Source: Octopus vulgaris (Eukaryota). Taken from it: a DNA stretch of 64,000 nucleotides. Numbering within the stretch: the first letter of the stretch is position 1; each line of letters begins with the position of its first letter. Location of the stretch: NCBI GenBank assembly GCA_951406725.2, contig OX597828.1, forward strand, positions 31,248,001-31,312,000, given 5' to 3'. This document shows positions 34,930 through 35,612 of this stretch, in pieces. The notes beneath the pieces were generated by a model. The model worked only from the letters and a program-made list of their open reading frames with translations. It had not been told where the DNA came from and made no database searches. The position numbers and the translations under genes are program-made.

Positions 34930-35294
34930 AGTTCAATATTTAAGAAATGAGCAATTATGTACATTATTTACAATTGACGTATATTTGTCCTCATCTTGTT
35001 TGTTAACACATTTCAGCTCATATGTCCTCCAGCCTTCATCAGGTGTCTTGGGGAAATTTTGAACCTGGGTTCTCCTTCCTAAGTTATTTTTCGGTCTTCT
35101 TCTTCTTCTTCTTCTTCTTCTTCTTCTTCTTCTTCTTCTTCTTCTTCTTATTATTATTATTATTATTATTATTATTATTATTATTATTATTATTATTATT
35201 ATTATTATTATTATTATTATTATTCAAGACACTGCCTGGAATCGAACTCGAACTCTTGGGGTTAGTAGACCGCGCTCATAAACACAACGCCATA
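34930..35294 (-). mobile_element. Hammerhead-SINE, full copy (tRNA head-microsatellite-HHR tail)
   Basis: Head 35224-35294, (TAA)n(GAA)n, tail with GACAC-CTGATGA-AGGCTG..GAAA at 35005-35047. Confidence 0.85.
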
Positions 35295-35299
35295 AGTAT

Positions 35300-35612
35300 T
35301 GGTTAAGAGTGTGGGCTAATAACTCCCAGATTCTGAGTTCGATTCCAGGGAGTAATAATAATAATAATAATAATAATAATAATAATAATAATAATAATAA
35401 TAATAATAATAATAATAATAATAATAATAATAATAATAATAACAATAATAATAATAATAACAATAACAACAACAACAACAGCATCGAAAAACTCAGGTTC
35501 GAAAATTTCCCCAAGATACCTGATGAAGCCTGGAGGGTATGTCAGCCGAAACGTTGTGATAACAAACAAGATGAGGACAAATATCCGTCAATTGTAAATA
35601 ATGTAAATAATG
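35300..35612 (+). mobile_element. Hammerhead-SINE copy, head-to-head with the previous copy
   Basis: TGGTTAAGAGT..GAGTTCGATTCC head, (TAA)n(CAA)n, tail. Confidence 0.85.
35515..35560 (+). ncRNA. Minimal type-I hammerhead ribozyme motif
   Basis: GATAC-CTGATGA-AGCCTG gagggtatgt CAGCC-GAAA-CG-TT-GTGAT; consensus across copies gives stem I GACAC/GTGTT, stem II GGCTG/CAGCC, palindromic ACGT stem III. Confidence 0.75.

Follow-up and report, generated by a model that had tools for sequence, protein, structure and literature searches.

A tRNA-like cassette opening the pseudo-LTR of an octopus Penelope-like element as a likely RNA polymerase III promoter

In the genome of Octopus vulgaris (2.80 Gb, 227 contigs) a tRNA-like head, a microsatellite spacer and a tail with the motif of a minimal hammerhead ribozyme are joined in one repeat, of which two copies lie at positions 34930-35613 of the 64-kb stretch of DNA analysed here (G000:C15:31248001-31312000, hereafter the window). 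The locus raises the question to which kind of element this head belongs. The original prediction regarded the unit as a chimera, namely a SINE head with a tail borrowed from a Penelope-like element (PLE). Sequence comparison makes it nearly certain that the repeat is the pseudo-LTR of a PLE in the same genome. This autonomous element of the Penelope/Poseidon type probably carries the tRNA-derived cassette as its own RNA polymerase III (Pol III) promoter.

Copies of the repeat in the window

The six predicted loci share one repeat family at the coordinates given for them, but they are not six complete head-spacer-tail units. Only three units in the window are complete, two of them head to head at 34930-35613 and one at 57849-58239. 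Positions within the repeat refer to two natural reference stretches, a head from L035 (ORF stop near 60, palindrome from 85, tRNA-equivalent +1 at 91, A-box from 98) and a tail of 179 positions from L002. The left copy at 34930 is on the minus strand. Its tail (34930-35093; tail 3-178, 85 %) comprises the start of the PLE frame, a decayed minimal hammerhead and a one-sided extension of 33 nt at the end, and is joined by an (AAT)n/(GAA)n spacer (35095-35224) to a tRNA-Arg-like cassette with A and B boxes (35230-35294; head 96-160, 86 %). Head to head with this cassette lies that of the plus-strand right copy, in which the A-box is decayed (35296-35353; head 102-159, 83 %), followed by an (AAT)n/(AAC)n spacer (35353-35480) and a tail without extension (35490-35613) with a hammerhead core at 35520 and imperfect stems. 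The pair is enclosed by a target-site duplication (plus strand, 34915-34926 and 35613-35624) with 11/12 identical bases including an exact 8-mer.

The remaining loci are less regular. At 5509-5846 (plus) a head and microsatellite spacer are present and the tail is absent. The inverted pair at 40504-40906 consists of a minus copy with tail (40504-40650), spacer and the B-box half of a head up to 40851, and of a plus tail fragment with extension (40850-40906). A second inverted pair, lacking a head, is located at 52354-52765 and comprises minus tail fragments with extension (52354-52410), a spacer and a plus tail (52613-52765). At 57849-58366 the complete minus unit, whose head runs from 58239 (reference position 84), is paired with a plus tail fragment and extension (58252-58366). 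A solo plus-strand tail with extension is found at 61550-61722. Inverted pairs thus occur at four of the six loci; these pairs and the target duplications had been overlooked in the original prediction.

The window contains other repeats as well. The insertion at 34930-35613 apparently lies inside a DNA transposon (33515-35750), which we take to be mariner-like, with a transposase-like frame at 34307-34810 on the minus strand and an inverted repeat of 193 bp (33515-33707 and 33892-34084, 98 %). A tandem duplication of about 620 bp with 96.6 % identity is present at 28529-29757. A second abundant repeat, its head weakly tRNA-like and its copies often split by microsatellites, was found at 3804-4205, 7434-7821, 11593-12014, 19570-20387, 41889-42289 and 45718-46139. 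Three related copies of yet another repeat, 70-79 % alike, lie beside (AAT)n tracts at 263-1481.

Genome-wide, the tail query gave 2,675 candidates. Eighty 10-kb stretches at fixed positions (800 kb) contained 11 tail, 7 head and 1 ORF matches, from which about 38,500 tail pieces per genome are extrapolated (95 % range 19,000-69,000). Copies deviate from the column majority by 7.5 %, and no intact full-length frame was found among the family copies.

The Penelope-like element and its terminal repeat

The predicted link to Penelope was borne out: the tail matches a PLE, and the choice between a PLE and a LINE 3' UTR, the latter named beforehand as contradicting the prediction, fell to the PLE. 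Directly upstream of the head of a tail-picked copy (L008) an endonuclease-like reading was detected, which is itself repeated (2,703 genome candidates). All 20 of the loci fetched with it contain a head match and, in addition, 59 ORF-linked heads are known, so that head and spacer belong to the autonomous PLE and the idea of a SINE head with a borrowed tail was abandoned. L058, reached with a reverse transcriptase (RT) query, has an open frame of 569 aa in which DKG, RT and C-terminal GIY-YIG-type motifs are recognisable; head, spacer and tail come after it, and an inverted truncated copy lies upstream of it. Relatives of this frame, among them P0001-P0012 with 55-68 % identity, are RT proteins of about 850 aa with PF00078, PF26215 and PF28514, and PF01541 appeared in 3/120 relatives among the matches listed. 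The RT was assigned by Pfam and the endonuclease read from motifs, a local Pfam search giving no endonuclease match and a PDB sequence search only weak RT matches (best E 0.014).

The tail itself is protein-coding, which had escaped the original prediction. In L225 it reads in frame from its start codon through the hammerhead into an N-terminal domain, and this reading matches residues 18-290 of P0003 (847 aa) with 45 % identity (E 1e-65). Across copies, 833 column-majority codons contain no stop, as expected for an RT and GIY-YIG frame of about 830 codons. The element therefore consists of A and B boxes, an (AAT)n spacer, an ATG with the hammerhead in the first codons, the frame of about 830 codons, a stop, a short linker and, once more, cassette, spacer and tail. 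The complete order of pseudo-LTR, ORF and pseudo-LTR is preserved in L339. A distant PLE used as query in the search for a second PLE family as control returned the same family at 30/30 loci; among PLEs of this kind it is the principal one in the genome. An extra Zn-finger in the linker that joins RT to endonuclease, described in the accessible part of 10.1101/2021.04.23.441226 as a trait of Neptune and Nematis, was not recognised on visual inspection of the translated L058 frame, and the family appears to be of the Penelope/Poseidon type. A metagenome scan for relatives yielded only eight distant PLEs (34-42 %). No tRNA boxes were detected in the four of them that were scanned, the contigs of which end 120-260 bases past the match.

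The tRNA-type Pol III boxes claimed for the head are real, with both the A and the B box kept in 57/122 heads. Compared with tRNA-Arg(ACG) genes of the host, 46-51 of 76-78 columns are alike (z 6.6-8.7), and alignment scores amount to 59-67 for seven such genes versus 38.5-62.5 for seven other tRNAs, Arg(ACG) being the best among the eight isotype labels compared. ARAGORN made no tRNA call in the element. Rfam (gathering threshold over the window; E up to 5 at four loci) returned neither tRNA nor hammerhead in it, and neither head nor hammerhead pieces reached significance in their folding z-scores. Elsewhere in the genome (G000:C2, 211.887-211.907 Mb) 24 matches to the tRNA-Arg(ACG) motif are clustered, many about 206 bases apart, in a tandem tRNA array.

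As to the minimal hammerhead, the claim held genome-wide: the core occurs in 114/183 covering tails and the full descriptor in 68/183, compared to 0 in shuffled sequences. The motif CTGATGA, predicted for the window tails, is common across the genome but exact in only two of the seven covering tails of the window (35520, plus; 35042, minus). Both hammerheads at 34930-35613 are decayed and the plus copy gave no hammerhead fold, while stems I and II fold in L008. The ribozyme is located within the first codons of the RT and GIY-YIG frame. It appears to differ in nothing from the minimal hammerheads of PLEs as far as these are described in the available text of PMC4209133: the core, the extra base between 9 and 10.1, the G10.1-C11.1 pair, the palindromic helix III and the prevalence of solo copies are common to both. 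According to the same excerpt, minimal hammerheads are dimeric. A hammerhead-in-frame layout is also indicated in relatives by a peptide pattern at P0003 residues 18-40, and in the distant PLE L253 a hammerhead core lies downstream of the frame, near 2627.

Copying by the RT and GIY-YIG protein of a PLE, as originally proposed, is in keeping with the insertions, which to judge from their ends carry Penelope signatures. Among 50 outward pairs (four duplicate loci were dropped beforehand) the 33-nt extension is present on exactly one side in 43, on neither in 5 and on both in 2, and target duplications of at least 8 bp flank 27/50 compared to 2.4 % of mismatched flanks. Head-to-head junctions number 94. 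The 27 direct-tandem junctions mostly resemble internal deletions with microhomology and were left out of the evidence on RNA starts considered below. The closest parallel is the anole Poseidon element PAc, for which the accessible part of PMC11167929 reports a frame overlapping the hammerhead, priming by the RT in vitro at two internal sites delimiting a one-sided 'tail', and protein assistance to the hammerhead. As far as this text goes, both elements possess an RT followed by a C-terminal GIY-YIG in one frame that starts in the pseudo-LTR over the hammerhead. Inverted and tandem insertions, a one-sided extension of 30-40 nt and AT-rich targets are likewise common to both. In contrast to PAc, the octopus PLE has a tRNA-derived A/B-box cassette and (AAT)n at the start of its pseudo-LTR, most of its copies stop at this cassette, and its frame is free of TTTT. 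For PAc a promoter is placed likely in the pLTR, and the available passages do not mention a tRNA-type cassette (PMC11167929).

Proposed start of transcription at the cassette

Of the loci picked with a query starting at the A-box, 28/30 ended at the cassette and 2/30 ran into the ORF. Heads starting within the 29 nt from 74 to 102 make up 32/35, versus 7 % predicted from the rate at which 18 endonuclease-picked copies are truncated, whereby heads within one palindrome are not independent. Of 53 starts that are not palindromic and were scored from 70 to 102, 45 fall at 83-95, these positions being BLAST ends and good to a few bases. Nine ORF-leading copies reach the cassette: three start at 89-94 (L225, L248, L315), three inside the cassette (L307, L316, L335), and three continue into an upstream copy (L326, L339, L342). 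In a tenth, L226, the cassette is deleted. Since a clean start is seen in only 3/9, ordinary tandem read-through exists as well; a start shared by short and ORF-leading copies is supported, not an exclusive one.

The tRNA genes of the host terminate in runs of at least four T. A Pol III template was predicted to lack TTTT, and the frame was then tested for T4 runs. The column majorities of the 833 codons contain 0 T4 and 28 A4 runs, the expectation for T4 being 3.2 after synonymous shuffling (P 0.017) and 5.2 with redrawn codons (P 0.002). Natural copies have 55 T4 runs in aligned segments versus about 272 expected (12 vs 52 and 43 vs 219); this count supersedes an earlier one of 91 versus 150 expected, which was based on stop-free frames with mixed strands and flanks. 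Five LINE-like controls, all small samples, showed 10, 2, 10, 7 and 4 runs where 9.8, 6.2, 8.5, 5.3 and 7.9 were expected, i.e. four at 0.5-1.3 of expectation and one (2 vs 6.2) as depleted. Eight distant PLE frames contain 2-12 T4 runs each. Within single decayed copies the lack was significant in only 1/8 by per-copy shuffling, and a skew of Phe codons alone was not significant (p = 0.16). A full-length Pol III mRNA of the PLE is a tentative proposal, somewhat less probable than its absence.

RNA data of a related organism (two raw runs, 6 % read, and two contig sets, all unstranded) show the same PLE family and junction types. Reads cover all 30 bins of L292, both strands alike; depth climbs from below 10 in the 5' frame to about 1,400 in the tail for each mate direction, and these unstranded reads show a start peak neither at the cassette nor at the hammerhead site. 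Depth increases towards the tail in parallel with copy number, and the pattern is compatible with embedded copies being transcribed passively.

The alternative that survives best, although it is rather unlikely, is that the cassette is a passenger, an old tRNA-SINE head within the pseudo-LTR from which Pol III makes short RNAs only. These would become the short copies, the protein would be made from Pol II RNA by tandem read-through or from a separate promoter, and the lack of TTTT would be due to chance or strand bias. The three ordinary partial tandems among the nine ORF-leading copies speak for it, as do the modest P values for T4 and the LINE control that is similarly depleted. In addition, Pol III RNA has no cap and no poly(A) and is a poor mRNA according to the accessible part of PMC6023835, and insertion of a SINE into an LTR is the origin proposed for Helenus and Ajax in that of PMC10886601. 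Against it stand the three ORF-leading copies that begin at the cassette, and the finding that over about 2.5 kb no T4 site occurs in even 20 % of the covering copies. Furthermore, the cassette is located directly upstream of the start codon, where a promoter is expected, and it shows only weak likeness (at most 15 bits) to the other tRNA-headed families in the sampled DNA, of which there are at least two besides the second abundant repeat. A promoter of the PLE itself remains the favoured reading of the cassette.

Less probable by a good margin is an independent non-autonomous SINE with master copies of its own and a PLE-derived tail, copied in trans. Head and tail are consistently linked, as had been claimed, with a tail following 58/66 short heads; foreign retroelements, which often interrupt the (AAT)n spacer or the end of the tail or are fused there (L006, L013, L015, L016, L026, L028, L212, L215), account for broken linkage in those loci. 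In the 800-kb sample the short copies outnumber ORF pieces, which is in favour of such a SINE. However, the head belongs to the autonomous element, and the commonest base differs between ORF-linked and short copies in none of 83 head columns (59 vs 34 sequences) and none of 179 tail columns (52 vs 39), 12 overlapping loci having been excluded together with any copy that had been picked through the part under comparison. Only the spacers differ, with a median of 18 nt in ORF-linked (n = 30) and 72 nt in short copies (n = 47; p = 2e-7), as if the two came from different source loci. Expansion after insertion should not differ between the two classes, and the difference suggests that sources existed among the short copies. 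Thus the separate SINE of the original prediction finds no diagnostic column in its support, although the longer spacers would allow SINE-like behaviour. The short copies do not form a distinct family, and neither a LINE-shared tail nor a simple-repeat 3' terminus was found. In two loci 1 Mb apart (L316 and L319 on G000:C3) the first part of the ORF is joined to a new cassette at head 85 by an identical junction, explicable by segmental duplication or as a non-autonomous deletion derivative.

A mere copying artefact, in which a small palindrome before the A-box stalls the RT or makes it fold back and the resemblance to a tRNA is without function, is very improbable. It is favoured by the 27/80 cassette starts that lie at head-to-head palindromes. 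A second possible hairpin hotspot exists in the endonuclease region, where another small GC hairpin lies close to the ends of 3/18 endonuclease-picked copies, all three within 14 nt of the query start, and such sequence hotspots may add to the pile-up. On the other hand, a block at the palindrome would also stop long templates, and of 16 inverted partners of long copies, taken without selection, 11 extend beyond the cassette (Fisher p = 2e-5), which argues for an RNA start. Moreover, 53 starts are not palindromic, and the intact A and B boxes and the lack of TTTT would be left unexplained. That the cassette marks the RNA start of the element is consequently the reading to which we incline. A LINE-partnered SINE was rejected because the tail is the start of the PLE frame and the ends follow the PLE pattern, a tandem retrozyme because no hammerhead tandem array is present in the window or among the loci examined, and a chance match was dismissed as well.

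Related systems and proposed mechanism

The novel part of the element is the tRNA-Arg(ACG)-like A/B-box cassette that opens a PLE pseudo-LTR. The full-text literature, as far as its accessible passages reach (including PMC8967140, PMC4758252, PMC4824008 and PMC3531059), contains neither a PLE with a tRNA-derived pseudo-LTR nor a Pol III-driven autonomous retroelement; repeat databases may already hold the sequence as a SINE/Penelope entry. A search for a PLE-mobilised tRNA-derived Pol III SINE gave no match in the literature, and the words 'hammerhead' and 'Poseidon' are missing from the available part of the supplement of PMC13282606. A Pol III promoter that stems from a small RNA and lies within the terminal repeat is shared with the TRIMp3 elements Cassandra, Helenus and Ajax, which according to the excerpted text are short non-coding LTR elements, unlike the coding autonomous PLE, and whose length is limited by Pol III in the author's view (PMC10886601). 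Short non-coding hammerhead repeats also exist, as far as the available text shows, in Schistosoma SM-alpha and the animal non-LTR retrozymes, which are proposed there to be PLE-derived or PLE-dependent, SM-alpha being called SINE-like (PMC8490949; bioRxiv 10.64898/2026.07.22.740005). Retrozymes as described in these excerpts form tandem arrays, whereas the octopus copies are inverted pairs or solos and a parent PLE with the same head was found. SM-alpha, cited as a precedent in the original prediction, has a tRNA/Pol III head. From octopus the tRNA SINEs OK, OR1 and OR2 were reportedly described by Ohshima and Okada in 1994. The head of OR1 and OR2 is derived from tRNA-Arg. These SINEs resemble the present unit in having a tRNA-derived head and probably come from the same host group. 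OR1 and OR2 are each called CORE-SINE in the seen part of one paper, and by that description the PLE unit, in which nothing but a microsatellite separates the head from the PLE tail, is set apart from them, although identity with one is possible.

According to the proposed mechanism, Pol III would start the RNA about 13 nt before the A-box, at about head 85, and the long RNA would be translated. The PLE protein would nick AT-rich DNA and prime reverse transcription from two neighbouring internal sites of the RNA, where the tail ends. The two cDNAs would be inserted back to back, one of them 33 nt longer, as may be supposed from the priming of anole Poseidon in vitro (PMC11167929, accessible part). 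Priming at the downstream repeat would lead to long, usually truncated copies. If priming took place at the upstream repeat or on the RNA of a solo short copy, the template would end at the tRNA start and a SINE-like unit would result, and fold-back at the palindrome would generate head-to-head pairs. The hammerhead is predicted to be active as a dimer or with the help of protein, and insertion need not depend on it.

LINEs are the established partners of SINEs, and the promoters of PLEs are ill defined. An autonomous PLE with a SINE-like terminal repeat makes a coupling of Pol III and PLE testable on a defined sequence. The polymerase known to serve coding retroelements is Pol II, with Pol I taking its place for R2. 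Functional mRNA can reportedly be made by Pol III, as the title of a 1995 publication by Gunnery and Mathews is said to state. A coding retroelement transcribed end to end by Pol III, which captured a tRNA-Arg promoter, lost every TTTT from its 2.5-kb frame, has its uncapped RNA translated and, through internal priming, gives off a 'SINE' of its own as a by-product, is somewhat less likely than not. If the long RNA were also a Pol III product, the rule for coding retroelements would be broken, and the question would arise how an uncapped, hammerhead-bearing RNA is translated. The scheme would, if true, provide a direct route for the birth of a SINE from its own partner. In practice, tens of thousands of PLE ends in the octopus genome may easily receive a SINE annotation.
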